Part shown: positions 2,470-35,978 of the stretch, in pieces
How the letters are laid out: every line of letters starts with the position of its first letter
How positions within the stretch are numbered: position 1 is the stretch's first letter
NCBI GenBank assembly: GCA_017464685.1
Contig: JAFTYO010000022.1
Location: 2,836-66,835, forward strand
Origin: Alphaproteobacteria bacterium
Lineage (GTDB): Bacteria; Pseudomonadota; Alphaproteobacteria; RF32; CAG-239
DNA length: 64,000 nucleotides
Reading direction: 5' to 3'
The notes under the pieces: generated by a model
The model's input: the letters and a program-made list of their open reading frames with translations, nothing else
What the model was told of the DNA's origin: nothing
Database searches by the model: none
Made by a program: the position numbers and the translations under genes

Positions 2470-2544
2470 GCCGTTGTAGCTCAGTGGTAGAGCACGTCAT
2501 TGGTAATGACGGGGTCGTAAGTCCGATTCTTATCAGCGGCACCA
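2470..2544 (+). tRNA. tRNA-Thr (anticodon GGT)
   Basis: Cloverleaf read by hand: acceptor GCCGTTG/CAGCGGC, D-arm GCTC..GAGC, anticodon stem CGTCA/TGACG with loop TTGGTAA (GGT), T-arm, then discriminator A and CCA. Confidence 0.85.
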
Positions 2545-2580
2545 GTTTTTTATTAAGCCCTTATTTCAAGGGCTTTTTTT
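2527..2580 (+). repeat. attL: left copy of a 54-bp direct repeat (tRNA-Thr 3' end plus terminator)
   Basis: ATTCTTATCAGCGGCACCAGTTTTTTATTAAGCCCTTATT[T/G]CAAGGGCTTTTTT recurs at 7957..8010 with one mismatch. Confidence 0.75.
2555..2580 (+). terminator. rho-independent terminator after tRNA-Thr
   Basis: Hairpin AAGCCCTT-ATTTC-AAGGGCTT followed by a T-run. It lies inside the att repeat. Confidence 0.6.
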
Positions 2581-2778
2581 ATGCCTTATTTTCTGCCCAT
2601 TTTAACCAACACGAAAGACCTACACGTCACTGAAGACGTCAAACCCGTCAAAATCACCTCGTTTATTTGGATAAACCAACAATTCTTCCCGAACGGATTT
2701 GCAAGACATTTAAGACATTTGCCCGATTGCATTTCTACGATATTACCGAACTTTAAGACATTTGCCCATTTTTTGCCA

Positions 2779-3201
2779 TTATAGATACTTTAGCAACCTT
2801 TTTGTTATCAAACCTTGTCCCTCTTCATAAAGATTATCGAGGTGTTTTAGTTTATTTAGTCCGTCGTTTATCTGGGATATACCGGTTATTAAATGATGAA
2901 TTGCATCAAGTGACGGGTGTCTTTGTTCTGATAATATCATTCCAAAATAATATTTGTTCTTGCCTAGAAACTGCTCACTAAACTCATATTGTGTCTTAAT
3001 GTATCCTAGTTTCTTTAAGTATTTGAAGCACTTTACCAGAAATTTAGCATCCAATTTTTGCTGATTATATTGAGGATTGTCCATTTCCTCATTAACTTCT
3101 TGGTCTAATGGTTTTGTTGGTGTGATAACAGGAGTTTCTTTGGCAAAATATTGTTTTAATTCATTTATGTCTTTGTTTAATTGATTCATATCTATAATCA
3201 T
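2779..3201 (-). CDS. hypothetical protein (140 aa), island cargo
   Basis: An ORF between the tRNA and the integrase with no recognisable motif. Confidence 0.3.
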   Translation of the reverse strand: MIIDMNQLNKDINELKQYFAKETPVITPTKPLDQEVNEEMDNPQYNQQKLDAKFLVKCFKYLKKLGYIKTQYEFSEQFLGKNKYYFGMILSEQRHPSLDAIHHLITGISQINDGLNKLKHLDNLYEEGQGLITKRLLKYL

Positions 3202-3309
3202 TTTGTTTCCTCATATTTTATAAGTGTATTTATTGGAGCAATGATTAAAAACCGGAATGAATATAAAAAAACTCTGCCATTTAGCAGAGTTTGGATAGTT
3301 TCAAGGCTT

Positions 3310-4827
3310 TTATTTGAAATAATAACTTTCTCTGACCAATTTCTTTAATTCTTTTAGTTCTTTGCTTAATGGGTAGGAAATCTTGGATAATTCTTGGTAA
3401 ACAACCTTTATATCTTTTGTTTTTCCATAAAGTCTTTGACCTGTTCCTTTATCTGCCCAACCTGCTATGGCATTTTGATATTCTGCAGGCATTTTTACTT
3501 CAATAGCCTTGGTTTCAAAAGTATATCTGAATGAATGGAAAACTTTATCAGCTCCGGTTATACCCAATTTATCCAAATATCTGGCAAACCAACCTTGAAC
3601 TGCTCTACTATATTTTCCTCTTGCTGATTGTGATAATTCACTAAACAATTTTTTTTGCTTACTTTTCCTTTGAAAATCCACAAAATTTAAAAAACCAAGT
3701 TCTATAATCTGAGGGTGAATAGGTATAATTCGTTCAGAAGGCTTATTTTTTACAGACTTGTCTTTATCATCAGAATTAATAGATATACAAGGAATGCCTT
3801 TATTACTAACAATATCTTTTGTATTTAATTGGCAGATTTCATTTAATCTGCAACCGTGGTATAAAGCAATCAACGGAACCCAAAACTTAGCTTGATTACT
3901 CCTTAATTTAGGATTTATATATGTTTCAGGATTAAAAATCTTATGCAATTCCTTGCTTTCAAAAGGATTTCGTTGCTCATCTTCACAATTAATCGGAACA
4001 TCTACAAATTCATTTAGGTTTTGAGCAATAATTCCTTCCCTAACAGCATATTTCATAAAATTAATAAATGTATGCAAATATCCTTTAATTGTTCTTTTAG
4101 CCAACACTTTTGTAGGGGCATTTGTAAAAATTTCAGATATCTTTTTGCCTTCATCTAGAACACTGTTCCATTGTTTGGGAACTTGGTAAATCTTCTCGCT
4201 TAGTTTACGACAATCCTGCTTTGTTACTTCTTCTATATATGTCTTTCCCATAACAGCAAAGGCAAGTTTAATCCCTAAATACATTGTACGAACTCGTTCT
4301 TCCGGAACTCCTTTAAGGTTTTGTTTGTTCAAGGCATACTTTTTGAAGAACTTTTCCCAATGTGTTTTAGACATTGATTTGGTTAATCTTTCAGTTGTTT
4401 TAAGCTCATCATAGCTTCTCAAAAGTGTTTTAACCTTAGGATTACTTGGATTATATGGCTTATCTTGTTTAATTGCTTTGATACTATTTTGAGCATATCT
4501 TTCTAATGCTGAAATATGTGTTCCAAAACTCTTAAACCATTCATAACCATCTTTGGTTTTATCTTCTAAACCAAGCTCAATCTCTTTTTCTTTTAGTTTT
4601 GAATAAGTTGTTCTTAAAGTTACATTGGCTTGCGAACTATCAACCAAGCTTTTGAGATAATCAATAATCATCTCAACCATTAGCTCTTTTCTTTTATCAT
4701 CAGGAAGTTTGATATTATTAAAATTCTTTTTTCCCTCAACAATATCTTCAGCACTTTCTTCTATAAAATATTGGATTTGACTTAATCTTGCGAGCAGAAC
4801 TTTAAAGAAATACAACAAAGAATACAA
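3310..4827 (-). CDS. int: tyrosine-type site-specific integrase (505 aa)
   Basis: The C-terminal catalytic domain carries the conserved Arg box (LYHGCRLNE) and the H-x-x-R box (HSFRYTF), with a tyrosine-bearing tail. It lies immediately adjacent to attL and the tRNA. Confidence 0.8.
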   Translation of the reverse strand: MYSLLYFFKVLLARLSQIQYFIEESAEDIVEGKKNFNNIKLPDDKRKELMVEMIIDYLKSLVDSSQANVTLRTTYSKLKEKEIELGLEDKTKDGYEWFKSFGTHISALERYAQNSIKAIKQDKPYNPSNPKVKTLLRSYDELKTTERLTKSMSKTHWEKFFKKYALNKQNLKGVPEERVRTMYLGIKLAFAVMGKTYIEEVTKQDCRKLSEKIYQVPKQWNSVLDEGKKISEIFTNAPTKVLAKRTIKGYLHTFINFMKYAVREGIIAQNLNEFVDVPINCEDEQRNPFESKELHKIFNPETYINPKLRSNQAKFWVPLIALYHGCRLNEICQLNTKDIVSNKGIPCISINSDDKDKSVKNKPSERIIPIHPQIIELGFLNFVDFQRKSKQKKLFSELSQSARGKYSRAVQGWFARYLDKLGITGADKVFHSFRYTFETKAIEVKMPAEYQNAIAGWADKGTGQRLYGKTKDIKVVYQELSKISYPLSKELKELKKLVRESYYFK

Positions 4828-4866
4828 TATGCTCTATATTATATCAGAAAAAATAAAAACTGGAAT

Positions 4867-5742
4867 TTGTGGTTTAATATAAGAATTGCTCCCGATAATA
4901 ATATAAACAACACAACAACTGGTGAACAATGTGTTAACACGCTATTTGGTGTTATGTGTGATACATTAGATGAGCCTAAAAAAGATGTGGGATTAAATGT
5001 AATGCTCGGTGGTAATTATGAATTTAAACTATCAGATAAATGGCGACTAAAGAATGAGTTTATGGTTTATAATTCAAAATATGATGATAAAAAATACGAT
5101 GACACATATCTATATTATACCATAGGTGCAAGATACATTTATAAAAAAGGAGATATTTTCTTCGGACCCACTTTTTCAAAGAGATATCTTGCCCACAAAT
5201 CTTATAACTATTCAACCGGTTTTATGTTTGAAAAAAATTATGATGTAACAAAAAAGCTAAACGCAAACCTAACCTTAAACTATACGCCAACATATTATGA
5301 TGACTATTCGGATATTTTGGACGGCGATGTAAAAAGCGCCAGATTGCGCTTATTTTATGCATTAGATGCTTCAAAATATTTCATATTTAAGACAGGTTAC
5401 GAATATGAAAAAACCAAAGATGAAACATATACAAACGATAGGATAAATCTTGCTCTCGGTTTTGGTGCAGAATTGCCATACGGTTTTCATATATATGCCG
5501 AACCTTCAGTTATATTTACAAACTACAAAGGAAAACGTTGGACAGTTAAAGATTATAATTTTGAAGAGATTAAAGAAAAAGATACAACCCAACGATACTC
5601 TATATCTCTTTCTAACCGAAAAATATCATTTATGGGATTTGTTCCGACTTTAACATATTCTTACACTGATAAGAGTTCAAATATATGGCAAAGAGAATAT
5701 GAAAAATCTTTAATTGAGTTTACAATACAGAAAAGATTTTAA
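4867..5742 (+). CDS. outer-membrane beta-barrel protein fragment (291 aa, no signal peptide)
   Basis: Aromatic-rich sequence with alternating hydrophobicity that ends in a C-terminal Phe (TIQKRF). There is no N-terminal signal peptide, so it looks truncated. Confidence 0.4.
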   Translation: MWFNIRIAPDNNINNTTTGEQCVNTLFGVMCDTLDEPKKDVGLNVMLGGNYEFKLSDKWRLKNEFMVYNSKYDDKKYDDTYLYYTIGARYIYKKGDIFFGPTFSKRYLAHKSYNYSTGFMFEKNYDVTKKLNANLTLNYTPTYYDDYSDILDGDVKSARLRLFYALDASKYFIFKTGYEYEKTKDETYTNDRINLALGFGAELPYGFHIYAEPSVIFTNYKGKRWTVKDYNFEEIKEKDTTQRYSISLSNRKISFMGFVPTLTYSYTDKSSNIWQREYEKSLIEFTIQKRF

Positions 5743-5755
5743 TAAACATTCCACT

Positions 5756-5831
5756 TTTTAATCAAAATCATATTTTTTTAGATAAATAAAAATATGAGTA
5801 TAAGAAATGTATTAAATAATTTAGATTTAGT
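5756..5831 (+). repeat. 76-bp direct repeat, copy 1 (copy 2 at 7220..7295)
   Basis: The two copies are identical: TTTTAATCAAAATCATATTTTTTTAGATAAATAAAAATATGAGTATAAGAAATGTATTAAATAATTTAGATTTAGT. The repeat includes the start codon and first 13 codons of an ORF. Confidence 0.8.
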
Positions 5832-5897
5832 AGAAATATAATATATCCATCTATGAAAGGTAAAAACTTTATATTTTTATGTAGTTTTTCTTCCATA

Positions 5898-5933
5898 AAA
5901 GAAAAACTGTTGACTTTTTGTATCTTTTTCATA
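5898..5933 (+). promoter_or_regulatory. sigma70-like promoter upstream of the ATPase gene
   Basis: TTGACT, then an 18-nt spacer, then TATAAT, about 40 nt upstream of the 5971 start. Confidence 0.45.
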
Positions 5934-5970
5934 TATAATATAGTAAATTAAATAATTTTGGAGTTTTGAT

Positions 5971-7200
5971 ATGGAAAAGAAAAATCGTCCCAATTATATA
6001 CAGAAGTTGTTAGAATTCAAAGATAAGGAAGCAATAAAAGTTATAACAGGTATTCGTCGTTCCGGTAAATCCAGTATTTTAGAAGTGTACAGAAAACATT
6101 TGTTAGAGATTGGTGTATCTAATGATAACATATTTTATATGACTTTTGAATCATTAGTCAATAGGGATAAAACATATCGTCAGATTTATGACGAGATAAT
6201 TTCTTTTTCTAAAAAAACAATAGGAAAAGTATATATTTTTCTAGATGAAATTCAACAAATAAAGCAATGGGAACTTGCTGTAAACTCTTTACGGGTTGAT
6301 ATAGATTGTGATATTTATGTTACAGGTTCAAATGCATATTTACTTTCATCACAATTATCAACATACTTATCAGGAAGATATGTTGAAATAAAAGTGCTCC
6401 CATTATCATTTAAGGAATTTTTAGAATTTAATGAATTTGATGCCTCTAAAAGTTTAGAAGAAAAATTTTCAATGTATATCAAATATGGAGGTATGCCAAT
6501 ATTAACTGAATATGATTTTGATAATGAAAATGCTATATTTAGTGTATTAGAAGGTATTTTTACAACAGTTGTAATGGAAGATGTTATAAAACAGGCCTCT
6601 GTAAGAGAACCTGTTGTTTTGGATAAAATAATCAATTTCTTATCTGATAATATTGGAAATCCAGTTTCAACAAGTAAAATTAAAAATGTTTTAGCATCAG
6701 AACAAGAAAATATAGAAAAAAAGAACATTACTGCATCAACTGTAGATAATTATATCAATTTACTTGAAAATGCTTTTGTTTTTTATCCGATAAAAAGATA
6801 CGACATAAAAGGAAAAGAATATCTAAAAACACAAGAAAAATATTATATCGTTGATACAGGTTTAAGAAACCAAAGATTGGGATATAGAAACATAGATAGA
6901 GGATTTGTTCTAGAAAATATTGTATATTTTGAATTATTAAGACGAGGATATAAAGTATCTATCGGAAAAATAGGCGATAAAGAAATTGATTTTATTGCGA
7001 CAAAAACTAATGAAAAATTATATATTCAAGTAACAGAAACATTAGCAGGAGAAACAACCAGAGAAAGAGAATTAACTCCATTAAGAATGGTAAAAGACCA
7101 TTTTGAGAAGATTGTCTTAACCTCTGATGTTCTTTTTACCGGAACTTCAGAAGATGGAATAAAAATAATCAATTTGGCAAATTGGTTATTGGAAGAATAA
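5971..7200 (+). CDS. AAA+ ATPase of the DUF4143 family (409 aa)
   Basis: Walker A (GIRRSGKS), Walker B-like (IFLDEIQ) and the C-terminal region typical of the COG1373/DUF4143 ATPase family. Confidence 0.75.
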   Translation: MEKKNRPNYIQKLLEFKDKEAIKVITGIRRSGKSSILEVYRKHLLEIGVSNDNIFYMTFESLVNRDKTYRQIYDEIISFSKKTIGKVYIFLDEIQQIKQWELAVNSLRVDIDCDIYVTGSNAYLLSSQLSTYLSGRYVEIKVLPLSFKEFLEFNEFDASKSLEEKFSMYIKYGGMPILTEYDFDNENAIFSVLEGIFTTVVMEDVIKQASVREPVVLDKIINFLSDNIGNPVSTSKIKNVLASEQENIEKKNITASTVDNYINLLENAFVFYPIKRYDIKGKEYLKTQEKYYIVDTGLRNQRLGYRNIDRGFVLENIVYFELLRRGYKVSIGKIGDKEIDFIATKTNEKLYIQVTETLAGETTRERELTPLRMVKDHFEKIVLTSDVLFTGTSEDGIKIINLANWLLEE

Positions 7201-7219: not shown

Positions 7220-7295
7220 TTTTAATCAAAATCATATTTTTTTAGATAAATAAAAATATGAGTATAAGAAATGTATTAAATAATTTAGATTTAGT
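7220..7295 (+). repeat. 76-bp direct repeat, copy 2
   Basis: Identical to 5756..5831. Together the two copies bracket the ATPase cassette. Confidence 0.8.
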
Positions 7296-7575
7296 GATAT
7301 CAAAGAAAGGTCAGATATTAAGAAGGCCTGATATTGGAACTATTGTAATAAAAGATAGTGGAATTTGCACACATAATCATATTCCATTTACTTTAGAGAA
7401 CTTGGTTAGGCTTTGGACTGAGAACACTCACCCAAAAATTAAACACAATGGACACACCATATACATCTATAAAATCAAAATGATTGATTACAAATTTAAC
7501 ATTGTTGCTTTTGGCTGGGATGAAACTCTTCAAAAACCAGTTAAATTAAGCGGATTTGAATATTACCGGTCATAA
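7258..7575 (+). CDS. hypothetical protein (105 aa) whose 5' end is duplicated in repeat copy 1
   Basis: The start MSIRNVLNNLDLV... is shared with the truncated 15-codon ORF inside repeat copy 1. Confidence 0.3.
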   Translation: MSIRNVLNNLDLVISKKGQILRRPDIGTIVIKDSGICTHNHIPFTLENLVRLWTENTHPKIKHNGHTIYIYKIKMIDYKFNIVAFGWDETLQKPVKLSGFEYYRS

Positions 7576-8442: not shown

Positions 8443-9162
8443 ATGACACAAATTAAACAAGGTTTTATATTAGCTGCCGGCAGAGGTAAAAGAATGCAAC
8501 ATTTGACAGATGATAAACCAAAACCTCTTATTAAAGTAGGTGGAAAATGTTTGATAGATTATAATGTTGAGCATTTGATAAATGTCGGCATAAAAGATTG
8601 TGTGGTTAATTTGTGTTATAAAGGTGAAATGATTCGTAACCATTTGTTAAAAACCTATCCGCAGATGAATTTTATTTTTTCGTATGAAGATGAAGCTTTA
8701 GAAACCGGCGGCGGTATTCAAAACGCTTTGTCGTTGATGCGCAATGAGCCGTTTTTTGTGATTAATAGTGATGCTTTGTGGTTTGATGTAAGCGGTCAAC
8801 ATTTGTTACAAGAAATGAGACAAGTGTGGAATGAAAACAATCATGATATATTATTGATGATGCAACCTGTGGAACAAGCATCCGGTTGTCATGCAAATGG
8901 CGATTATTTATTAGATGAAAACAAATATCTGAAACGCCGTAAAGATAAATTTATCAATGCTCCATATTTGTATGGAGGTGTGCTGATATGCAACCCTAAC
9001 GTGTTTTTAAATGAAGAAAAAGGCTGTTATTCATTAATACGGATTTTTGATAAATTGGAACAAAATAACCGCTTAGGTTATTATATACATAAAGGGCAAT
9101 GGTTTCATGTGGGTGACCCTAAGGCAAAAGAAATTGCCGAAACACATTTTGCATTAGATTAA
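8443..9162 (+). CDS. sugar-1-phosphate nucleotidyltransferase, MurU-like (239 aa)
   Basis: N-terminal LAAGRGKRM...PKPL motif of the NTP-transferase fold. Size and layout match the MurNAc-1-P uridylyltransferase family. Confidence 0.6.
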   Translation: MTQIKQGFILAAGRGKRMQHLTDDKPKPLIKVGGKCLIDYNVEHLINVGIKDCVVNLCYKGEMIRNHLLKTYPQMNFIFSYEDEALETGGGIQNALSLMRNEPFFVINSDALWFDVSGQHLLQEMRQVWNENNHDILLMMQPVEQASGCHANGDYLLDENKYLKRRKDKFINAPYLYGGVLICNPNVFLNEEKGCYSLIRIFDKLEQNNRLGYYIHKGQWFHVGDPKAKEIAETHFALD

Positions 9163-9264
9163 AAATTTTATATAAAAAAATTGTTGACTTTTTAACTTAT
9201 TTGCGTTTTTGTATAATAGGTAATATTATTTACCCCGTATTTGCAATGTTTTTATAATTTTATA

Positions 9265-9624
9265 ATGAGTGTGACTATGACTATATATAAAAGAATATTC
9301 GTATTGTTGGTAACCATTTTGGTAACTGCCGTTATTAATACCACTAAAGCTGATATGTTAGACGTTGACTATATTTACCTTGCTGCCGGCAAGGGTGATA
9401 TAGATTATTTATCTCGTGTCGGTGAATATAACATTTCATTGGAAACGACCAATAAAGATGGTGATACACCTTTGTGTATTGCGGCAAGAAAGAAAAACGA
9501 AAAAGCATATAACACACTTATTAAAGCAGGAGCGAATCCAAATGCTCCTTGCACAAAAAACATTGCCGGTTATGGAGAATTTCAAGAAAAAACAATGGGT
9601 TCGATAGCATTCGGGGGGGGGTAG
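9265..9624 (+). CDS. signal-peptide plus ankyrin-repeat module (frame 1), the decoupled N-terminal part of the giant surface protein
   Basis: Predicted signal peptide (MTIYKRIFVLLVTILVTAVINTTKA), then an ANK repeat (DGDTPLCIAARKKNEKAYNTLIKAGANPN). The ORF ends ...FGGG* inside the poly-G run. Confidence 0.6.
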   Translation: MSVTMTIYKRIFVLLVTILVTAVINTTKADMLDVDYIYLAAGKGDIDYLSRVGEYNISLETTNKDGDTPLCIAARKKNEKAYNTLIKAGANPNAPCTKNIAGYGEFQEKTMGSIAFGGG

Positions 9625-12600
9625 TAAACTATTTTCTGGTTCTAAACTGGCTTGGACTGCCGGAACACTTGCTGTTCTTGGAGGTGCTGCTGCACTCGCC
9701 GGTGGCGGCGGTGGCGGCGGTAGTGATGGCTGCCATAAGTTTCTTGGTGATGATGGTGTTTGCTATGAAATAGTTGAGTGTGTTCATGGTAATCAATATA
9801 GAGACCTTTGTGTTTGCGATAAAGGTTGGGAAGGCACACTTTGTGATACTTCGGTGATTTGTGATTCCGGTTATGTCGGTATAGGTGAATGTCCTCTTGG
9901 CTACTATAATAACAAAAACAGCACTTCTTGCAACTCCGGTAACAATGTTTTGTATGAATGCAAACAACATACAGATCCGAATTGTAAAAACGGTAGTCCT
10001 GTCAAAGACGAGTGTATGGTGTGTAATGAAGGATATGAAGTAGACAGCAGCGGTTTGTGTGTGGCTAAAGATTGCGGTGCTGATTATGCCGAGTTGGGAC
10101 AATGCGGCGCAGGAATGTGGAATGATGACACTAAAGACAGTTGTCAATCTGCCTCAACCATGTTGTATAAGTGCTATGAACACAAAGAAGTTGAAAAATG
10201 TGCAAGTTATGATGAAATATCAGACGTTTGTGTCGATTGCGAATACGGATATGTTTTAAAAGGCGGAAAATGTGAAGTTAACCAATGTAAATCCTCTTAT
10301 TACTTAGTTGATAGCTGTCCGAATGGTTACTGGCAAAATAAAACCGATGAATGTAAGCAAGGTGAAGAATTAAAATATAACTGTGTTGCAAGAAACAATA
10401 AGACAGGTTGTGCAACATATGATCCATATTCTGACACTTGTTTATCTTGTGTAAGCAACGGATATGATTTGGTTGATGGCAAGTGCGAGGTTCACGATTG
10501 TGATGATAATATTTATGCTTTACAAGGTAAGTGCGCAACTGGTTGGAATGCCGCAACAACCGATACTCTTTGTACTGAAGGCACTGTTAAAAAATATGAG
10601 TGTAAAGCACATACTGCTCCTACAAATCTTTGTAAAACATATGACAAAGGTAAAGATGCATGTTCAGTATGTTATGAAGGATATACTCCTTCAGGTAGCC
10701 AATGTGTAGAGGTTGATTGTGGTGACTCATATAAAGAGTATGGTAAATGTGCTTATGAAAATGGCTATTATAATAACGATAGCACAGGAAAATGTGTGTC
10801 CGGTACTACACAACTGTTTAAATGTGTAAAAAATTCTGATAATAACTGTATTCAAAGTAGTCCTATTGAAGATAAGTGTATTCAATGTAAAGATGGATAT
10901 ACACCTAACGCTAATGGTAAGTGTGTAGTTAAAAATTGTGAAGGTGACTATGCTAAACTTGGTAACTGTGGAACGGGTAAATATAATAACGAAACTACTA
11001 ACCATTGTAAATCCGGTGAAGATGATTTGTATCTTTGTTTGGTAAATGATGTTGCAAATTGTACAACAACTTCAAAAGATTCAAATACTTGCGTTACTTG
11101 TGATACTGGATACAATCTGAAAGAAGGAAAATGTGAAATAAATCAATGTGGTGATGAATATAAGACATCTGGTCAATGTGGCGATGGGTATTATAACATC
11201 GCCTCAGCATCAACCGGTAATTACTGTGATGAGGGTTCAACCAAAAAGTATAAGTGTCAAACACAAGTAGAAGTTGACAACTGTAATATATATAGTGCAA
11301 CTTCAAAAGGCTGCGCACAATGTAAAGATGGTTGGAATGAAAAAGCAAGTTCAACAAGTTGTCCAATTAATACGTGTGACAATTATGCTAATGTTGGTGC
11401 GTGCACAACTGGTTGGAACGATAACTCGCAAAAGACATGTAACATTGGTACCAACACAGTGTATTACTGCCAAGCCCATACAAAAGTTGACCGTTGTGTA
11501 ACCTATAATCCGAGAGCAAATGAATGTGCGGTATGTACCGAAGGTTATACAGGTGCTCAATGTACTGAATGTGATACCGGATATAAATCAGATGGAAACG
11601 GCGTATGCTATCCGGACTTAAATTGTCAGCATGGTACAACACAAAATGGAGATAAGTGTGATTGTGCTGATACCGGATTTACAGGTGACGAATGTAATGT
11701 TTGTGAAAGCAGACAAGTAGAAGGGGATTATTGTTATCCTAAGCTTGAATGCCAATATGGCGGAACACAAAACAAAAACACCTGTGAATGTCCAGCTGGC
11801 TTTAGTGGAGATTATTGTGAAATATGCCCCAGTGGTGATATTGTTGAAACAAATGGTGTGTACGAATGTAAAGCTTTGGTGGGTTGTTTGCATGGTGGAA
11901 CTCAAGTAAACGGTATGTGTGTCTGCAAAACTGAAGATGCGGAAAATACTACGGTTGCGAACTGGACCGGAGATAAGTGTCAGACTTGTCAGAGCGGAGA
12001 CAGTTTAGGAGATACCTGTTTTGCAAAACGTACAGATTGTAATACACAAAACAGTTCGGGACAAAAGTATGGTGAATGTGTGTGTGCAAACGGATGGAGC
12101 GGAGATACTTGCGACACTTGTGATGGTTTGGTTTCTGATGGTGCATGTATTCCGACATATGCCGCTTGCGGAAGCAACGGTGTATGGTCATATGCCAATA
12201 ACAAATGTGAATGTGATGAAGGCTACAGTGGTGACAGATGTGAAATAGCTCCAACAATTGAATTAAATTGTCAGCACGGAGGAACACCAAATGCCGAAGG
12301 AACAGCATGTGTATGTACCGCTAATTGGAGTGGAACAGAATGTACCTCTTGTTCAAGTGGTGACTATGAAGGTGATACTTGTTACCAGAAAATAGATTGT
12401 AAAAACTACGGAACACAGAAAAAAGGTGTGTGTGAATGTAACTTTAGTAACTGGACCGGTGCTGATTGTAGCGTGTGTCCTAATGGTTATGTAGAACAAA
12501 CTGTATCGGGTGTTTCACTTTGTTTGACACCTGAAGAAAATACAAGAGGATGTATGTTCGGTGAGATTGTAGGTGACAGTTGTGAATGTTACAATGGTTG

Positions 12601-15600
12601 GTCCGGTACAAATTGTGATGAGTGTCAATTTAATGGAGTAGCTGGAGTTGTAAAAGGCAATGTTTGTTACGAAAAAATGGATTGCGTAAATGGTACTCAA
12701 GATGGTGGTAGATGTTCATGTGATTCCGGATGGACAGGAACATATTGCGATATACAAACGACTCCTAATAACTACAACTTTTCTAAAACAATAAATGTTA
12801 CAAAAACAGATGCTACCACGGGTGAAAATGTTGTCGGCTTAGAACATAACGGTTCTGCCTCAAACAAAATCGGTACATGGACAGATCTTTACAATGCATA
12901 TGTTAAAGATGCCGGAACACTTGATGATACATATCAAATTTCGGTAAACAATACAAATCCTGCTAACAGCAGTAATACATTCGGTATGAAAAATGATACC
13001 GGTAATGCATATACCATTTATGTAAATGGTATCAACAATACAATTGCAGGTGTTCTAAAATCTGTTATTAATGTAACTCATGAAACTACAGTAGAAAATA
13101 AGAGTGCTTCATACTCTATGTATGGTATACACGCCGAAAACGATGTGGTTACAATTAAAAAAGATGGCAGTAAGGCAAACGGTCTTGACGTTTCAAGTGA
13201 GATTAATGTAACATATAAAGATACTTATGAAGGCACTTATGAGGCTGATACCGGTGTAAAGGTTGAATTGTATGGTATTCATAGTAAGTCAGGAGATGTT
13301 CATAACACTTCAAACTCTACTATTAATGTAAAATCAGAAGTAACAAGAACAGCTTATAAGCCACATACATATTTATATGGTGCATATTCCAGACGTGGTG
13401 ATGCGACAAATGATGGTATCATTAAGTTAACAGGAGCAACAGATGGTCCTGCTTATGGCCTGTATGCTGCTCTTAATGCAATTAACAATAATGAGATACA
13501 AATTTCGGGTGAGGCTGCAGCTTATGGTATCTTCGGAGCTGAATCGGCAACTAGTAGCGGAAGTGTAGCCGTAGAAGTTAGTAAACAAGGTGATGCTTAT
13601 GGTATTCGTACCCCCGGTGCCGCAAATTTAAGCGGAACCCTTAGTGTTACAACCAAATCTGGAGCCGCATATGGTGTGCATGCAAATAATAACATCACCA
13701 ACACAAACAGTATAACCACAGTTAGCGGTACAAGTGCTTACGGTCTTAAGAGTAATGATGGCAAGGTTACAAGTACAGGAGGTAGCATTAATGTTACAAG
13801 TACAACCGGTTCTGCATATGGTATTCAGACCGGTAAAGGAGTTGTAAGTAACAGTGATATAACTGTTAAAGGTACAAAAACCTCAACAAATTCTGTTTTC
13901 GGTATTAGTGCCGGTGATGCTGTAACTAACAATGGCGGTAAAATAGATGTTACGTCGTCTTCCTCATCATATGATTATCGTAATGCTTATGGTATTAATA
14001 CCTCAAGCGGCAAGGTTACCAATAGTGGTACAATTACGGTTAACGGTAATACTTATGGTGGTTCAATTTATGGCGTGAATACTCCAACCGGAATTGATAA
14101 CACAAATGGTACAATTATCGCAACAGCGAAAGGAAATTATACAGATGCATATGGTGTTTATACTTCAAGTAGTGTTGATATGAGTAAATTAGGTACAATA
14201 AAAGCCAGTGCCAGTGGTAGTATTGCAGATGCTGTGGCTGTTTATTTTGGAACAGGCAGTGTAAACTTAAACAATACAAACACGGCTAATTTGTCCGCAT
14301 CGAGTAGTTATATCAGATATCTTTTTGAAGGAGCAAATGGAACAACAATTACAAGCTCAGCTAACATTAATGCCGGCTTAAAAGCAGGAACGGTTAATAA
14401 TAGCGCTACACTATCCGGTGCTCTTTATGGTATTTATGCCTATAATACCGCAAGCAACACAGGAACCGTTAATGCTACATCCTCACATTATACCAGTACA
14501 CGAGGTATATATGCTGGCGGAACTGTTTCAAACATAGGTGGTACGGTAAATATTACCGGAAATACAAGCGATTATACCAGTTATGGTATCCAGTCAAACA
14601 ATGGTGGTATAGACAACACCAATGGTAAAGTTACAGCCAGTGCCGGTGAGGTTTATGGCCTGTATGCAAGTAATGAAACTATTAATAATACAAATGGTCA
14701 TGTTGAGGTTTCAGGAAGTTATTCGGGTACTTATACTTCCTACACAGGAGGTATTAAGACATCTGGTGGTAATGTTAATAATAACTTAGGTACTGTTATA
14801 ACTCAGAGTAAGAACGATTATGTTTATGGTATCCAGACATCCACAGGTTCCGTAAACAATAGTGAGGGTGCTGTTACCGTGAACGGAACACATACAAATA
14901 ATCAGAATGTTTACGGTATCTACACATCAAGTGGCGAAATTAATAACGGACGCGGAAGTATTGATGTTACAGGTATTTCAAGTAATGTTTACGGTATATA
15001 TACAACAAGTGGTGTAGTTAATAACCTAAAAGGTAGTATTAAAGTTGAAACCGTTGAGGAAGCAACGGGAAGCGCATATGGTATTTACACTAAAGGTGCT
15101 ATTGATTCAAACGCACTTGGTTCAATAGTTGTTTCGTCAGAAAATGGTAAGGCAGTTGGTGTTCACTTTGAAAAAGGTACAATTGAGTTAACCAATACAA
15201 ATACACGAGATATCACCGTAACCGGACAAGAAAGATTGTTGTTTGAAGGAGCAACCGGTACAACCTTAAAGAACTCTGCAATTATTCAAGCCGGTATTAA
15301 GGCAGAAAATGTTGAAAACATCGGAACAATTAATGGTGGTAAGTATGGTATATATGCAGACAAGACGGTTAAAAACACCGGAACTGTTACTGCACAATCA
15401 GATACAACAGCATATGGTATTTATACCAATGGTACGCTTGATTTATCAGGATTTACAGGTTCTGTAACAGCTACAGCTCAGGATAAAGCGGTTGGTGTTT
15501 ATTTTGGACAAGGCGAAGTTGAAATTAGCGCTGCAGCAGCAGGAAACATTACGGTTAGCGGCAGTGGTGAACTTTATGTTATTGAAGGTGCAGAAGAAAC

Positions 15601-18391
15601 AAAAGTTACTAATAATGCACAGTTTAATAATGGAGGTATAAAAGCCGGAGATGTTTACAACAACGGAATAATCAGTGCCGGTGGTAAATATGGTATTTAT
15701 GCTTATAACGAGGCTGTAAATACTGCTGCAATCACAAGTTCAGAATATGGTATTTATGCCGGTGGAAATGTTGATAACAGCGCTAATATTACAACAACTA
15801 ATAGCTATAATAAAGCATACGGAATTCGTGGTGATTCAGTCAAAAACTCTAAAAGAGTTACGGTTACTTCTGCAAACAATGTGGCTTATGGTATATATGC
15901 TTTAAGTTCTGTAGAAAATACAGGTGGTACAATCAATGTTACATCAACTACGAAGGATGCATATGGTATTTATACCAATGGCAGCATTGATTTATCGAAA
16001 CTTGGTACAATTACCGTAAAAGCAGGTGCAACCGGTACAGCTGTTGGTGTTCGCTTTGCAAACGATACACTATTGTTAACCGGTAATCATGGTATAAGTA
16101 TAACCAGTGGTTTGGAACGCTATTTGTTTGAGGGTGGAAAAAATACAACCATTAATAATAACGCAACCATCTCAGCCGGTTTGAAAGCTGAAAACATCAC
16201 AAATACCGGTACCATAAGTTCATCAGGTATAAGAGGTGTTTGGGCATCATCGAATATAACAAACAGTGGTACAATTAAAGCTACTGCAAACTATGATAGT
16301 GTGTATGGCACTTACTTAGATAATGTTAATGCAACATTTGATAATACAAATGGTAAAATTGTAGCAACCAATAATAGTACCTCCTCTTCTACTGTATATG
16401 GTATATTCACAAAAGGTGCAGTAGATGTAAATAAACTTGGAACGATTACTGCATCATCAAATACAACAAATGGTAAGACAATCGGTGTTCATTTTGAAGA
16501 TGGAACTTTAACATTGAATAATGACTTGACCAATTTTACCTTAACAGGAAGAGAAAAGTATCTGTTTAACGGTGGTGTTGAAACTAAAATTGTTAACAAT
16601 GCAAACCTTACAAAGGGCGGATTATCAACCGAGCAAGGTACTATTGAAAATAATGTTAGTATAACAACCGATTCTAGCACAGGTATATATGCTAAAACCG
16701 GAACGGTGATTAATAGTGGTGACATATCCGTCAGTGGATCTTCTGGTAAGTTATATGGTATTAGAGCTGAAGAAGGCTCAACTGTTACCAATACGGGTAA
16801 TGTTACTGTAACTAAATCTGGCAGTTCTGCTGAAGCTTATGGCGTTTATTTAGATGGTAGTACTTTTGATAACCAAGGTGCAATTGAAGTTAAAAACACC
16901 TACAATTCATATTATTCTAAAATGTATGGCGTTTATGCAACAAACGGATCTGTTGTAACAAACAGTGGTACAATTAAGATAACCAGCACTTCCGGCACAA
17001 AAGAATGTGATTCAACAAATTGTAAGGCAAGTACTTCGGCTCCAACTACATCTACACCTGTATTTGTCTACACAAGTTCGGATTCAACTTTTAAAAATAA
17101 CGGTGCGGTAGCATCGGTAGCTTCACTCAATTTGGATACTGATTTTGGTGAAGGTCAGGTAATGCTTGCTCAAAACGGTTCATTTAGTGCTCCATCATTG
17201 ATGGGTTCATTAGGTGTTGCAACCGATGTAGTTGAAGAAGGTTTTGAAAATACGTATACTGTACAAAATGCCATTGTATCTGATGATACAACCGGATTAA
17301 ATCTAACCTCAACTTCTGCATTATTTGATGCAACATTAGATGGACAAGATGTTGTTATGAATAAAAAAGACTTTGCTGATGTGGTTGAAAATGCTTCAAT
17401 GGCAGAGTTTTTAGAAAATAACTACAAATTTGAAAATAATGCCTCATTGTTTGAAACATTGAAGAAACAGAACAATGTGGCAATGCTTAATGATGTAGTT
17501 GATGTATTATCCGGTAGCGATTTGAAACGCTTCAACTTTGAAGATATGCTAATGTTAAAAGAAGTTAGCGCAGATATGAACAATAAACTATTTGAAAATA
17601 AAAATAAAAACGAATACTTTACACTAACCGGAAATACTAATACCACATATTTTGAAGAAAATTCGTCTGCAAATTCCAGATGGATGATAAGCGGTAAGAA
17701 ACTTGGTAAGAAGAGTTATGGTATGGGTATTGTGTTTAGTAATCTTCGTTCATATGACGATGATAGTTCAAATAATCGTGAAGATGAATCTGTACAACTC
17801 TTGATGCCATTTGGTTATAATACACATAACTTTGAGTTTATCGCAATGCCAAGATTGGGATATTCTTACGGAACATATACTCGTAATGGTATTGATAACC
17901 TCAATTATGATGGTACAATTGAAAAACGTATATTTGGATTAAATACGGCCTTTCGTTATCCAGTTGAAGTTAATGATTGGAAGTTATATCCAACTATGGA
18001 ATTCAATGCAATCAATTATTTAGTTGATGGTAGTGAAGAAAATAAACCATATGCGTTGGATATTGACAGACAAAACATTACTTCTGCAGAAATTGGTGTG
18101 GGCTTGAATGCATCCAAATCATATAACTTTGATAAAAATCACAATATGAAAGTAAACTTTGGATTGATGGCTTATCATGAGTTCTTAGATCCTTATGAGT
18201 TAAAACTTTCTATGAGAGGTATGGACGGTTCATGGCGTATTAAAGATGAACGTCGCAAAGATAACCATATAACCATAAATGGTGGATTTGAATATAATTT
18301 AGTTCCGTTTGCCGTATATGGTAATGTGTTCTCTTATATTGACAGTGAATATAATACTAAGGCTGATTTAGGATTAAAGTACGCTTTCTAG
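9608..18391 (+). CDS. giant cysteine-rich-repeat, autotransporter-like surface protein (frame 2 open from 9608; ~2,927 codons)
   Basis: Gly-rich linker, then ~9 tandem ~57-aa 8-Cys repeats and ~12 EGF-like CxCxxGWxGxxC repeats. After these come ~50 degenerate (S/T)AYG(I/V)(Y/H) repeats. The C-terminal ~240 aa are beta-barrel-like and end ...LKYAF. The annotated GTG start at 9854 is not a real start. Confidence 0.7.
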   Translation, partial: HSGGGSKLFSGSKLAWTAGTLAVLGGAAALAGGGGGGGSDGCHKFLGDDGVCYEIVECVHGNQYRDLCVCDKGWEGTLCDTSVICDSGYVGIGECPLGYYNNKNSTSCNSGNNVLYECKQHTDPNCKNGSPVKDECMVCNEGYEVDSSGLCVAKDCGADYAELGQCGAGMWNDDTKDSCQSASTMLYKCYEHKEVEKCASYDEISDVCVDCEYGYVLKGGKCEVNQCKSSYYLVDSCPNGYWQNKTDECKQGEELKYNCVARNNKTGCATYDPYSDTCLSCVSNGYDLVDGKCEVHDCDDNIYALQGKCATGWNAATTDTLCTEGTVKKYECKAHTAPTNLCKTYDKGKDACSVCYEGYTPSGSQCVEVDCGDSYKEYGKCAYENGYYNNDSTGKCVSGTTQLFKCVKNSDNNCIQSSPIEDKCIQCKDGYTPNANGKCVVKNCEGDYAKLGNCGTGKYNNETTNHCKSGEDDLYLCLVNDVANCTTTSKDSNTCVTCDTGYNLKEGKCEINQCGDEYKTSGQCGDGYYNIASASTGNYCDEGSTKKYKCQTQVEVDNCNIYSATSKGCAQCKDGWNEKASSTSCPINTCDNYANVGACTTGWNDNSQKTCNIGTNTVYYCQAHTKVDRCVTYNPRANECAVCTEGYTGAQCTECDTGYKSDGNGVCYPDLNCQHGTTQNGDKCDCADTGFTGDECNVCESRQVEGDYCYPKLECQYGGTQNKNTCECPAGFSGDYCEICPSGDIVETNGVYECKALVGCLHGGTQVNGMCVCKTEDAENTTVANWTGDKCQTCQSGDSLGDTCFAKRTDCNTQNSSGQKYGECVCANGWSGDTCDTCDGLVSDGACIPTYAACGSNGVWSYANNKCECDEGYSGDRCEIAPTIELNCQHGGTPNAEGTACVCTANWSGTECTSCSSGDYEGDTCYQKIDCKNYGTQKKGVCECNFSNWTGADCSVCPNGYVEQTVSGVSLCLTPEENTRGCMFGEIVGDSCECYNGWSGTNCDECQFNGVAGVVKGNVCYEKMDCVNGTQDGGRCSCDSGWTGTYCDIQTTPNNYNFSKTINVTKTDATTGENVVGLEHNGSASNKIGTWTDLYNAYVKDAGTLDDTYQISVNNTNPANSSNTFGMKNDTGNAYTIYVNGINNTIAGVLKSVINVTHETTVENKSASYSMYGIHAENDVVTIKKDGSKANGLDVSSEINVTYKDTYEGTYEADTGVKVELYGIHSKSGDVHNTSNSTINVKSEVTRTAYKPHTYLYGAYSRRGDATNDGIIKLTGATDGPAYGLYAALNAINNNEIQISGEAAAYGIFGAESATSSGSVAVEVSKQGDAYGIRTPGAANLSGTLSVTTKSGAAYGVHANNNITNTNSITTVSGTSAYGLKSNDGKVTSTGGSINVTSTTGSAYGIQTGKGVVSNSDITVKGTKTSTNSVFGISAGDAVTNNGGKIDVTSSSSSYDYRNAYGINTSSGKVTNSGTITVNGNTYGGSIYGVNTPTGIDNTNGTIIATAKGNYTDAYGVYTSSSVDMSKLGTIKASASGSIADAVAVYFGTGSVNLNNTNTANLSASSSYIRYLFEGANGTTITSSANINAGLKAGTVNNSATLSGALYGIYAYNTASNTGTVNATSSHYTSTRGIYAGGTVSNIGGTVNITGNTSDYTSYGIQSNNGGIDNTNGKVTASAGEVYGLYASNETINNTNGHVEVSGSYSGTYTSYTGGIKTSGGNVNNNLGTVITQSKNDYVYGIQTSTGSVNNSEGAVTVNGTHTNNQNVYGIYTSSGEINNGRGSIDVTGISSNVYGIYTTSGVVNNLKGSIKVETVEEATGSAYGIYTKGAIDSNALGSIVVSSENGKAVGVHFEKGTIELTNTNTRDITVTGQERLLFEGATGTTLKNSAIIQAGIKAENVENIGTINGGKYGIYADKTVKNTGTVTAQSDTTAYGIYTNGTLDLSGFTGSVTATAQDKAVGVYFGQGEVEISAAAAGNITVSGSGELYVIEGAEETKVTNNAQFNNGGIKAGDVYNNGIISAGGKYGIYAYNEAVNTAAITSSEYGIYAGGNVDNSANITTTNSYNKAYGIRGDSVKNSKRVTVTSANNVAYGIYALSSVENTGGTINVTSTTKDAYGIYTNGSIDLSKLGTITVKAGATGTAVGVRFANDTLLLTGNHGISITSGLERYLFEGGKNTTINNNATISAGLKAENITNTGTISSSGIRGVWASSNITNSGTIKATANYDSVYGTYLDNVNATFDNTNGKIVATNNSTSSSTVYGIFTKGAVDVNKLGTITASSNTTNGKTIGVHFEDGTLTLNNDLTNFTLTGREKYLFNGGVETKIVNNANLTKGGLSTEQGTIENNVSITTDSSTGIYAKTGTVINSGDISVSGSSGKLYGIRAEEGSTVTNTGNVTVTKSGSSAEAYGVYLDGSTFDNQGAIEVKNTYNSYYSKMYGVYATNGSVVTNSGTIKITSTSGTKECDSTNCKASTSAPTTSTPVFVYTSSDSTFKNNGAVASVASLNLDTDFGEGQVMLAQNGSFSAPSLMGSLGVATDVVEEGFENTYTVQNAIVSDDTTGLNLTSTSALFDATLDGQDVVMNKKDFADVVENASMAEFLENNYKFENNASLFETLKKQNNVAMLNDVVDVLSGSDLKRFNFEDMLMLKEVSADMNNKLFENKNKNEYFTLTGNTNTTYFEENSSANSRWMISGKKLGKKSYGMGIVFSNLRSYDDDSSNNREDESVQLLMPFGYNTHNFEFIAMPRLGYSYGTYTRNGIDNLNYDGTIEKRIFGLNTAFRYPVEVNDWKLYPTMEFNAINYLVDGSEENKPYALDIDRQNITSAEIGVGLNASKSYNFDKNHNMKVNFGLMAYHEFLDPYELKLSMRGMDGSWRIKDERRKDNHITINGGFEYNLVPFAVYGNVFSYIDSEYNTKADLGLKYAF
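9613..9621 (+). repeat. poly-G homopolymer (9 G), a candidate slipped-strand phase-variation tract
   Basis: A 9-G run in an otherwise AT-rich genome. A 1-nt loss (or a 2-nt gain) would fuse frame 1 (signal peptide plus ANK) to frame 2 (the giant ORF). Confidence 0.7.
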
Positions 18392-18409: not shown

Positions 18410-18437
18410 AAAACCGCTCTTTTTGAGCGGTTTTTTG
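18410..18437 (+). terminator. rho-independent terminator after the giant gene
   Basis: AAAACCGCTC-TTTTT-GAGCGGTTTTTT. Confidence 0.7.
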
Positions 18438-18560
18438 TGTTATTATACATTAGCTAAAAAATTGACAATTTAATATTATCTGACTTGAAAAATTTTTCCT
18501 TTACATTTTTATCACAAAATGATAGTATAGACTATGTAAAATTTAGTCGAATGATTTATA

Positions 18561-24210: not shown

Positions 24211-24287
24211 CGGATTGTAGTTCAGCCTGGTAGAACGCTTCGTTCGGGTCGAAGAGGTCGCTAGTTCGAATCTAGTCAATCCGACCA
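24211..24287 (+). tRNA. tRNA-Pro (anticodon CGG)
   Basis: Acceptor CGGATTG/CAATCCG, anticodon stem CTTCG/CGAAG with loop TTCGGGT (G37), T-arm GGTCG..TTCGAAT, then ACCA. Confidence 0.85.
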
Positions 24288-25796
24288 TACATGACGAAAG
24301 CCTCCAGAGAGGATGTTCTCTAGAGGCTTTCTTATTGAAAATAAAGGATTTTTTCCTTCTAGCAAAAAGTTCGAATAAAGCAATTTTAAAACCTTCCGTT
24401 TTTCTTGGCAATTCGAACTTTCATAAATCTCAGGTATCTTAGATACCAATAAAATCAGCTCTTCTAAGCTGTTTAACCCTTGCTTTGTTACTTCATTATA
24501 ATGTGATAATTTTTTATCTAGATTTTCGATTTGTTTTGTAATTTCATCATATTTTTTATTATATTGTTCCTGTGTAATACTATTATTAAGACGCATATCA
24601 AGCAACATATCCAAATTGTTTTCCAACTGAGTCTTTTTGCTTTTCAAAATCCGTCTTTCCTCTATTTCTATTTTGTGCTTTTCTTTAATTTCTTGTTGAA
24701 TCAAAACCAATGTATCTTCAAGTAGCTTTAACGGCATTTTTTTGAGCCTACACAAGTCATCTTTAATTTTAGCGTCAACTATATTCTCGTTAATACGAGT
24801 GTCTTTACAATGAGGGCAAAACAGATATTTATGCACGCGACCGTTTTGTTTATATTTGACATCCGGCGTAATCATTTTTCCGCAATGTTTGCAAAATATC
24901 ATACCGCGATATACGTCCTCAACTTTACGCTTCCGATGGAAAGACCTCCCGAGGAGGAGGTCTTGGCATTTATCAAATAATTCTTTACTTATGAGCTTTT
25001 CGTAATTGTGAGGGTAAAGTTTACCGTAGCACTTCATAAAACCGTAGTAAAACGGATTCTTTAGCATATTTATGATTGTTTGCTTATGAACTTTGTTCTT
25101 TTGTTTCTTTTTATACCGTCTCGTTTTAAAACCCAATTCGTCCGCGAGACGTGTCAAATCTGCCAATGAATATGTACCTGTCGCATATTCACGAAATAAT
25201 TTTTTTACAATCGGTCCCATAATCGGGTCAACCAGAATAGTTGTACTGTGTCTGCTATAGCGTTCGTTATAATACCCGACAGGAGCACCGCTAAAATATT
25301 CTCCGGTATCAGGCATGGCTTCCATTCCTCTTTTAACGTTATCCGACAGATTGCTAGTGTAACCTGAGGCAAGTAATATTTCAAATTGATATCTCATCCA
25401 ATCGTTACCAGATGAGTGTTTATTCAAAACCAATCCGCTTGTTACAAAATGAAGTTGCACCCCATTCATAACCAAATCATAAATTGTGCTATATTCTTTA
25501 AAGCTACGTTGCAACCTATCCACTTTATCACACACAATGGCAATCGGTGGCTTTTGTTTTTTTATAAAATCTATTACCTCATTAAATTGTTTTCTGGGAC
25601 CCCTTGTTGAACTTTCCTCAAAGGAAATAGTTTTTATAATAGGCATATGAAGGCGCTCGCAATATTGCTTGATACGACTATCTTGTGCATCCAACGAATA
25701 CCCTTCTGCTTGTTCGCGCGTTGATACGCGAGAAAAAGAAACAGCTTTAATATTTTGTGCCATATTTTTTTCACTTTCATTTATAAATTTTGTCAT
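24276..25796 (-). CDS. large serine recombinase (506 aa)
   Basis: N-terminal resolvase-type catalytic domain (AVSFSRVSTREQ, VCDKVDRLQRS), then a recombinase domain, a Cys4 zinc ribbon (CKHCG...CPHCKD) and a coiled coil. Its 3' end overlaps the 3' end of tRNA-Pro by ~12 nt. Confidence 0.8.
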   Translation of the reverse strand: MTKFINESEKNMAQNIKAVSFSRVSTREQAEGYSLDAQDSRIKQYCERLHMPIIKTISFEESSTRGPRKQFNEVIDFIKKQKPPIAIVCDKVDRLQRSFKEYSTIYDLVMNGVQLHFVTSGLVLNKHSSGNDWMRYQFEILLASGYTSNLSDNVKRGMEAMPDTGEYFSGAPVGYYNERYSRHSTTILVDPIMGPIVKKLFREYATGTYSLADLTRLADELGFKTRRYKKKQKNKVHKQTIINMLKNPFYYGFMKCYGKLYPHNYEKLISKELFDKCQDLLLGRSFHRKRKVEDVYRGMIFCKHCGKMITPDVKYKQNGRVHKYLFCPHCKDTRINENIVDAKIKDDLCRLKKMPLKLLEDTLVLIQQEIKEKHKIEIEERRILKSKKTQLENNLDMLLDMRLNNSITQEQYNKKYDEITKQIENLDKKLSHYNEVTKQGLNSLEELILLVSKIPEIYESSNCQEKRKVLKLLYSNFLLEGKNPLFSIRKPLENILSGGFRHVWSD

Positions 25797-25800
25797 GATT

Positions 25801-28504: not shown

Positions 28505-28655
28505 AAAATTTGTTATACCGTTTCTTTTTCATTTTTTGCCTTTTTATTATTTTATAATATCGCCCTTACAAGAACTCAAGCAAATAATTCATATTTTTCT
28601 TTATACATTACAATAAACTGTTGCTATTTATCGCTTTGATAAATATGATGCGATT

Positions 28656-31986: not shown

Positions 31987-31987
31987 G

Positions 31988-32878: not shown

Positions 32879-32881
32879 ATT

Positions 32882-35977: not shown

Positions 35978-35978
35978 T

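Follow-up and report, generated by a model that had tools for sequence, protein, structure and literature searches.

The stretch of DNA analysed here, hereafter the window, comprises 64,000 nt of contig JAFTYO010000022.1 from the metagenome-assembled genome (MAG) GCA_017464685.1 of an uncultured alphaproteobacterium of the gut or rumen. Between positions 9265 and 18391 it carries a locus that is publicly annotated as two genes, MBQ8870368.1 (115 aa) and MBQ8870369.1 (2,845 aa), each described as a 'hypothetical protein'. Judging from its translated domains and its homologues, the locus is one type Va autotransporter gene, not two, and its reading frame changes at a run of nine guanines (G9). 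The features of the locus and of the rest of the window are collected in Table 1.

The run, GGGGGGGGG, lies at 9613..9621 (+) and is the site of the frame change. The frame 1 open reading frame (ORF) extends from ATG 9265 to position 9624 and encodes a 119-aa product, MSVTMTIYKRIFVLLVTILVTAVINTTKA/DML...IAFGGG*, which ends at the first of two tandem stop codons; if translation began at ATG 9277 instead, the product would be the 115-aa protein of the NCBI annotation. In frame 2 the last stop codon is found at 9605-9607, the frame is open from there to the end of the gene, and it contains no ATG, GTG or TTG codon upstream of the GTG called as start by the gene caller. The two frames are simultaneously open only at 9608-9621, that is, over G9 plus 5 nt, and the frame change must therefore fall within the tract.

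Tract length was varied in silico. A G8 tract gives a single product of 3,041 aa and a G11 tract one of 3,042 aa, G9 gives the 119-aa product, and G7 and G10 are dead ends of 168 and 169 aa, respectively. A difference of one G decides between the full-length ORF and an early stop, as in a contingency locus. In the G8 reading the tract is decoded as GGG GGG GGT (Gly-Gly-Gly), and G9 corresponds to codons 117-119 of the 3,041-codon surface-protein gene, i.e. a homopolymer longer than about 7 nt located in the 5′ coding region, where a contingency tract would be looked for. The predicted junction peptides are ...IAFGGGSKLFSGSK... and ...TMGSIAFGGGSK / LFSGSK for G8 or a +1 shift, and ...FGGGGSK, the GGGG version, for G11 or a -2 shift.

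The predicted signal peptide has a Kyte-Doolittle maximum of 2.76 over residues 5-25, Lys/Arg residues ahead of the hydrophobic core and Ala at position -1. An N-terminal Sec signal of this kind, with predicted n, h and c regions, is present on the barrel-bearing polypeptide only in the G8 or G11 reading; the ORF as sequenced and annotated begins VICDSGYVG... at GTG 9854 and has no signal peptide. The beta-barrel of a type Va autotransporter requires export through Sec. The product starting at GTG 9854 would have to be exported for its barrel to function but carries no signal peptide, and this start is therefore an annotation artefact of the frameshift. A consensus scan found no + strand promoter-like site within 9265-9854, and a scan for terminators found no terminator-like site separating the two ORFs.

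Table 1. Coordinates of features at the autotransporter locus and elsewhere in the window
Feature	Position	Strand	Details
Promoter-like region	9210..9258	+	extended -10 TGTATAAT at 9210-9217; TTTACC-18-TATAAT at 9229-9258; consensus matches only
Sec-type signal peptide (predicted)	9265..9351	+	MSVTMTIYKRIFVLLVTILVTAVINTTKA; from translation
Ankyrin module, residues 34-95	9364..9549	+	Pfam Ank E=1.3e-5, 25.6 bits vs cut-off 21.1; Ank_2 E=8.7e-6
Frame 2 ORF, autotransporter body	9608..18391	+	2,927 codons plus stop
Tandem stop codons TAG TAA	9622..9627	+	terminate frame 1 right behind G9
Hydrophobic stretch, then Gly7 linker	9647..9721	+	LAWTAGTLAVLGGAAALAGGGGGGG; moderately hydrophobic Gly/Ala/Leu/Val; linker codons GGT/GGC, no G run
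Cys-rich EGF-like repeats	9731..12748	+	fused-protein residues 156-1161, ~1,000 residues; weak Pfam EGF_TEN and EGF_Teneurin matches
Called start GTG	9854..9856	+	gene-caller start of the 2,845-aa product MBQ8870369.1
Cys-poor passenger, then conserved pre-barrel linker	12749..17758	+	(A)YGI(Y)-type repeats (~1,400 residues); from translation; precomputed BigA_3rd match
Autotransporter beta-barrel	17759..18388	+	PF03797 E=8.3e-12, 45.8 bits vs cut-off 26; ends ...LGLKYAF
Intrinsic-terminator-like hairpin plus T tail	18410..18444	+	hairpin 18410-18434; 19 nt past the stop codon
tRNA-Thr	2470-2544		followed by a DUF6626 gene
Tyrosine integrase	3310-4827
SlipAM surface-lipoprotein assembly modifier	4867-5742		just upstream of the autotransporter locus
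AAA_14/DUF4143 ATPase	5971-7200		just upstream of the autotransporter locus
tRNA-Pro	24211-24287		overlapped by the serine recombinase gene
Serine recombinase	24276-25796	-
SNF2 helicase	28656-31547
Type III restriction-modification, mod	32882-34597
RhuM	34922-35992		within the type III set
Type III restriction-modification, res	35979-38681

Homologues and the protein family

A protein search with the frame 2 product returned 15 homologues with 26-43% identity, one of them named 'MAG: Alphaproteobacteria bacterium'. In all 15 a single ORF encodes the signal peptide, the ankyrin module (ANK), the hydrophobic stretch, a run of 6 to 11 glycines, the Cys-rich repeats and the barrel. The homologue P0003 (...GADPQPDCLRAVLYGANGGADGGTFLGMGKIGWTATGLAVAGVGVAAAAGGGGGGGGGGGSSCAGFLGDDGVCYDKLQCVHGHQYRNTCVCDAGYKGDLCD...) aligns residue for residue with the window sequence across the frameshift, where ...GANPNAPCTKNIAGYGEFQEKTMGSIAFGGG lies on one side and SKLFSGSKLAWTAGTLAVLGGAAALAGGGGGGGSDGCHKFLGDDGVCYEIVECVHGNQYRDLCVCDKGWEGTLCD... 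on the other. The 246 nt of frame 2 that lie 5′ of GTG 9854 encode the hydrophobic, polyGly and first Cys-repeat region, which is conserved and aligns to P0003 as well. The C-terminal 470 aa show 36-52% identity to eight homologues, and the PF03797 match, covering residues 261-441 of this segment, is shared by 8 of the 9 aligned family members.

A profile of the C-terminal 470 aa was run against a collection of one genome per species and against public metagenomes. It matched MAGs of Alphaproteobacteria from rumen, ruminant gut, rabbit and human gut, several of which encode multiple paralogues. Among loci with the 5′ end present, one unbroken ORF carries both the N-terminal module and the barrel in every case, 60 of 60 from genomes and 38 of 38 from metagenomes; a chimeric contig (L135), two short contigs (L173 and L176) and four distant loci (L180-L183, about 23% identity) were left out of these family counts. 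L135 had come up as a candidate split family member and was rejected, the contig being chimeric. Because the homologues all fuse the signal-peptide/ankyrin module in frame to the Cys-rich repeats, the two ORFs of the window are taken to be one gene.

The ankyrin module measures about 80 aa in family members, and in all homologues its position matches that in the window. The polyGly linkers of the family make little use of GGG (7 of 278 codons), and no G run longer than 2 occurs in 32 of the 38 linkers. The Gly/Ser-rich spacer that holds the tract in the window varies in length among homologues, and tracts of G5, G8 and G11 should therefore all be tolerated by the protein. A hydrophobic segment behind a cleavable signal peptide occurs in every member (P0003-P0017, L017-L170), an odd feature for an autotransporter passenger. 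The succession of ankyrin module, hydrophobic Gly/Ala segment, polyGly linker and about 1,000 Cys-rich EGF-like residues was found here only in MAGs of gut and rumen Alphaproteobacteria, and this family of ankyrin-headed EGF-repeat autotransporters appears to be without description in the literature that was searched. When the first 300 aa of the fused product were used as the query, the protein search retrieved just two ankyrin proteins, both unrelated, and no close orthologue that would show the ancestral tract; a PDB profile search with the C-terminal alignment gave no meaningful match.

These data bear out most of what a first-pass annotation of the window had proposed for the gene structure: that a 9-G run parts a signal-peptide/ankyrin module from an ORF of about 2,900 codons, that frame 2 is open from 9608 without a start codon of its own, that it reads through a Gly7 linker straight into the Cys-rich repeats, and that the GTG start is artefactual. 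A bona fide internal start with a signal peptide for the downstream ORF does not occur in frame 2 ahead of GTG 9854. Three points needed adjustment. The downstream frame measures 2,927 codons, 8 or 11 Gs do fuse the frames, giving products of the lengths listed above instead of about 3,050 aa, and the ankyrin module is present as proposed, with Pfam matches that cover about two repeats instead of one.

The G9 tract and its possible explanations

Contigs from the same locus were retrieved with the exact sequence of the upstream NTP-transferase gene (8443-9162), a route that is blind to the state of the tract. This gave 13 contigs, and G9 was read in all eight that reach the tract among those listed. 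The eight derive from Illumina data, namely megahit k141 ENA assemblies, Logan assemblies of the runs SRR12529360, SRR12529365 and SRR12529366, and scaffolds of XIEF21. They are 99.9-100% identical to the window and represent at least five haplotypes defined by single-nucleotide polymorphisms (SNPs). The NCBI MAG shows the same split into MBQ8870368.1 and MBQ8870369.1. A look-up with the downstream neighbour yielded one short contig that stops short of the tract. Across the haplotypes the 8.8-kb body contains one SNP, which is synonymous; this single SNP does not allow the ratio of nonsynonymous to synonymous substitution rates (dN/dS) to be estimated.

The tract is not explained by base composition or by codon usage. 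G9 is the sole run of G or C of at least 7 nt in the window, whose GC content is 34.7%; the runner-up is one C6. In dinucleotide-preserving shuffles a G8 run is expected 0.09 times on average per window. Furthermore, GGG accounts for only 4 of the 355 Gly codons of the gene, two of the four standing next to each other at the tract, and for 35 of the 527 Gly codons in 20 other ORFs of the window. When the Gly codons of the gene were shuffled, a G run of at least 8 arose in 0.06% of trials (P=6e-4). The run is non-random and longer than either expectation. The first-pass annotation had called it conspicuous for an AT-rich genome, which agrees with these figures; it is anomalous for the codon usage of the gene too.

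G runs were also seen elsewhere in the family. A rabbit-gut MAG contains a member (L083:53-61, CANPYS010000049.1) that is apparently frame-split at a G9 in the polyGly linker: the upstream frame reads ...TAAVGGAVALALSLDNGGGG and then KKEIPVMA*, the Cys-rich body lies in another frame, and G10 or G7 would restore the fusion. L083 thus needs a correction of +1 or -2, as opposed to -1 or +2 in the window; the contig ends 52 nt upstream, and only the end of the hydrophobic segment is visible. At the same position of another member (L063:6863-6870) an in-frame G8 encodes part of the polyGly linker. The opposite correction in L083 and the in-frame G8 in L063 would fit mutational slippage better than a fixed recoding signal. 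In a further locus (L030:6976-6986) a family gene has an intergenic G11 some 100 nt ahead of its start, directly 5′ of a TTGCAA...TATGAT promoter-like pair.

The explanation towards which we lean, with some caution, is that the autotransporter gene contains a slippage-prone intragenic G tract, now at its OFF length, that undergoes stochastic and reversible changes of ±1 G. Slipped-strand mispairing at G8/G9 during replication would lead to the reversible gain or loss of one G. With nine Gs, translation would halt at the TAG-TAA pair after 119 aa, with only the signal peptide and the ankyrin module made, and the 8.8-kb body, lacking a start codon and a signal peptide, would be neither initiated nor exported. 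Cells with G8, a minority, would produce the secreted surface protein at its full 3,041 aa. The body is undamaged, with 2,927 sense codons and a single terminator behind the gene. From the architecture of the locus we infer that the tract switches, that is, that it changes length at a useful rate and that the population exploits this.

Several results weigh against this explanation. No tract-length variant was found in the eight tract-covering contigs. A collection of 15 billion proteins, searched for exact matches, contains the G9 products but none of those predicted for G6, G7, G10 and G12, nor the G8 fusion in its 3,041-aa or 3,037-aa form. Scanning JGI metagenomes with a pattern that left the tract length free gave 0 matches. 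Length polymorphism within or between populations, as a contingency locus should display, was not seen in these consensus assemblies of a near-clonal population. Only one tract is visible in 64 kb, with no sign of a genome-wide contingency set. The closest homologue (43% identity) encodes the tract site as GGTGGTGCAGATGGCGGC, with no G run, and the position of the tract is not conserved across the family. A family-wide excess of long G runs was considered and rejected, since 7 runs of at least 8 were observed against 5.6 ± 2.1 in synonymous shuffles; the histogram of run lengths from G5 to G9 is misleading about such an excess because the polyGly linkers provide many chances for runs.

The test for length variation had low power. 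As a control, the two A12 runs of the window were followed as well and proved equally invariant, A12 being present in seven other contigs. Because the A12 runs do not vary either, the population is near-clonal and assemblies report the majority allele only, the invariance of G9 is weak evidence. In Campylobacter jejuni, G9 is the modal tract length and switching between G8 and G9 occurs at about 1e-4 to 1e-3 per division, with rates of 6.9e-4 for G8 to G9, 2.1e-4 for G9 to G8, 1.0e-3 for G9 to G10 and 1.8e-3 for G10 to G9 (PMC3401435). The neutral equilibrium calculated from these rates, which are those of another organism, is roughly 16% G8, 52% G9 and 30% G10. An invariant G9 consensus would be expected of a neutral switch because at such rates G9 is the majority allele at equilibrium. 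The proposal of the first-pass annotation that this is a classic contingency locus, phase-OFF as sequenced, thus stands as regards the type and position of the tract and the frame logic; its switching part finds no length variation to support it, all assemblies being G9. Likewise, the comparison with relatives that it had suggested found the tract absent from the closest homologue and fixed at G9 in the near-identical contigs.

The approach is able to reveal tract differences, as in a different gut organism in which one site is G9 in L181 and G11 in L183. The two loci (L181:13819-13827 and L183:13229-13239) represent the same gene of a human-gut organism of 28% GC in two samples, with the G9 in frame and the G11 out of frame. 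The gene begins with ATG AAC, followed by the G tract and a signal peptide (...LKVFLVMLFFAINVFA); a distant autotransporter homologue is located about 8 kb away. On the sequences of the two alleles, the G-tract gene is likely a real poly-G phase-variable secreted protein gene.

The main rival to a switch is a plain frameshift that became fixed recently, i.e. a young pseudogene produced by a one-off G8 to G9 change in the ancestor of the near-clonal population, with the tract as a mutational hot spot and no switch. We regard this as rather unlikely, though as the strongest of the rivals. It would account for the invariance of G9 in at least five haplotypes and for the absence of the ON allele everywhere, and it is in line with the lack of a tract in the closest homologue, the unconserved position, and the absence of an excess of long G runs in the family, which also avoids GGG in its Gly runs as if selection usually acted against such tracts. 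On the other hand, a decaying pseudogene should accumulate several disabling mutations or show relaxed constraint, and what is found is one frameshift and 2,927 downstream codons that are still open at 35-38% GC, with a sole SNP that is synonymous; any inactivation must therefore be very recent, for which there is still room. Drift is unlikely to have placed side by side two copies of a codon that serves 1.1% of the glycines (P=6e-4). Moreover, a G9 tract would revert appreciably in any case, and all that separates a pseudogene from a switch is whether use is made of the reversion. Far less probable is a homopolymer sequencing or assembly error in a gene that is truly G8 and intact, an alternative that the first-pass annotation had itself raised: homopolymers are a classic site of indel errors and the data are all metagenome assemblies, several perhaps from one study, but the eight contigs, from different assemblers and runs and spanning at least five SNP haplotypes, agree on G9, the MAG is split in the same way, the contig names indicate short-read assemblers, and a consensus error recurring everywhere in a 9-mer is improbable. 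From these sequences G9 appears genuine, and an error very unlikely.

The G9 allele could also be expressed by recoding, either through RNA-polymerase slippage producing G8 mRNAs or through a ribosomal +1 or -2 shift at GGG-UAG, with tRNA-Gly on GGG in the P site and a slow UAG in the A site. This would supply full-length protein at a low, steady level, alongside a surplus of the 119-aa ankyrin product. The stop codon stands right behind the run, a -2 shift would re-pair perfectly, all populations retain G9 with the body intact, and transcriptional slippage at homopolymers is established in bacteria. Slippage of this type is discussed in PMC9187656. Nevertheless, we consider recoding improbable, as the other family loci with a 5′ end (98 of 98) and the 15 homologous proteins are single ORFs, so that the two-ORF arrangement of a recoding site is not conserved, there is no G run in the closest homologue, and L083 requires the opposite shift. 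The tandem TAG TAA favours efficient termination, and no exceptional RNA structure that could stimulate a shift was found at 9600-9740 (fold z=-1.6, with 15 of 200 shuffles as good or better). Productive transcriptional slippage is, in addition, known mostly on A/T runs. Related to this is the doubtful, marginally less remote idea that G9 is not a null allele at all and that one promoter gives rise to two products, between which the tract toggles or, by RNA-polymerase slippage or -2/+1 recoding, divides expression: a free secreted ankyrin protein of about 90 residues and the 330-kDa ankyrin-headed EGF-repeat autotransporter. If so, the 'OFF' allele fixed in every sampled rumen population would be a functional, selected form. 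Finally, the reading as two genes proper, one for a small secreted ankyrin protein and one for a large protein initiated at GTG 9854 or at a non-canonical codon, would match the gene-caller and NCBI annotation; this merits the least credence of all, given that frame 2 offers no ATG, GTG or TTG in 9608-9853, that a barrel protein without a signal peptide would not reach Sec, that the homologues are all fused, and that frame 2 encodes a conserved region upstream of GTG 9854.

Other features of the window

The two A12 runs (48079-48090 and 56582-56593) sit in a duplicated promoter-like block, AAGACTCTTTTTACTTGCA-A12-CGGTTTATGATG, with a TTGCAA-like -35 element, the poly-A in the spacer and a TATGAT -10 element. 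The block lies about 80 nt upstream of each of two paralogous DUF4402 genes (48171-48626 and 56672-57202). A homopolymer in a promoter spacer is another classic layout for control by slippage.

The GC content of the autotransporter region is 4-9 points above that of the flanking genes at 2470-7200, which include a tRNA gene and an integrase gene. Further downstream, the segment from the tRNA-Pro gene and its overlapping recombinase to the type III restriction-modification set (24211-38681) is probably an integrated defence island. In contig L011 (SAMN15829960), which ends at 9236, 14 substitutions relative to the window are clustered in 128 nt (7310-7437), within an ORF of 105 aa (7258-7575), and the rest of the contig has one other. 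Because the changes are not adenine-specific, this cluster looks like a recombination patch rather than the product of a diversity-generating retroelement.

Known poly-G switches and the biology of the family

Intragenic poly-G switches on autotransporters and pilins are textbook knowledge in Campylobacter, Neisseria and Bordetella, and lately in Bifidobacterium. The mechanism considered here is well known, and what would be new is the host and the protein family. The C. jejuni autotransporter gene capA (Cj0628/Cj0629) is phase-variable via an intragenic G10/G11 tract and carries a two-ORF annotation (PMC3401435). Like the window gene, it encodes a type Va autotransporter with a G homopolymer in the coding region whose length sets full-length synthesis versus early truncation, it is annotated as two ORFs in reference genomes, and its host is AT-rich and gut-associated. 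Unlike in the window, where all assemblies are G9, capA switching was measured by immunoblot, and there are about 29 tracts per C. jejuni genome compared with one in the 64-kb window. The two families are unrelated save for the barrel, the window gene being about three times larger, with an ankyrin head and EGF-like repeats, and belonging to an uncultured alphaproteobacterium.

The architecture of the sortase-dependent pilin genes of Bifidobacterium breve UCC2003 (bbr_0113a/b and bbr_1889a/b), in which the Sec signal and the body are encoded in two ORFs parted by a G tract (PMC9187656), matches even more closely than that of capA. There, too, the second ORF is without its own translation start, the reference genotype is OFF and the host is a gut commensal (PMC9187656). 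The differences are that these are Gram-positive LPXTG pilins with G11/G12 tracts, for which heterogeneity and in-vivo enrichment of the ON state were shown by maximum-depth sequencing (PMC9187656), and that G tracts recur over Bifidobacterium pilus clusters, whereas the window tract is unconserved among homologues. Like BigA-like type Va proteins (PF03797, BigA_3rd, BigA_beta), the window protein has a long passenger made of repeats, a C-terminal barrel whose last residue is aromatic and, in the G8 or G11 reading, a predicted Sec signal at its N-terminus; it differs in the arrangement of ankyrin, hydrophobic, polyGly and EGF-like segments at the N-terminus of its family.

The records MBQ8870368.1 and MBQ8870369.1 misdescribe the gene and ought to be combined into a single entry for a frameshifted, possibly phase-variable, autotransporter gene. 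To our knowledge, intragenic poly-G switches on autotransporters and pilins have not been described in uncultured low-GC Alphaproteobacteria of the rumen and gut. If the switching proposed here is true, these commensals would stochastically vary a 330-kDa surface protein with eukaryote-like ankyrin and EGF-like modules, presumably under pressure from phages or the host.

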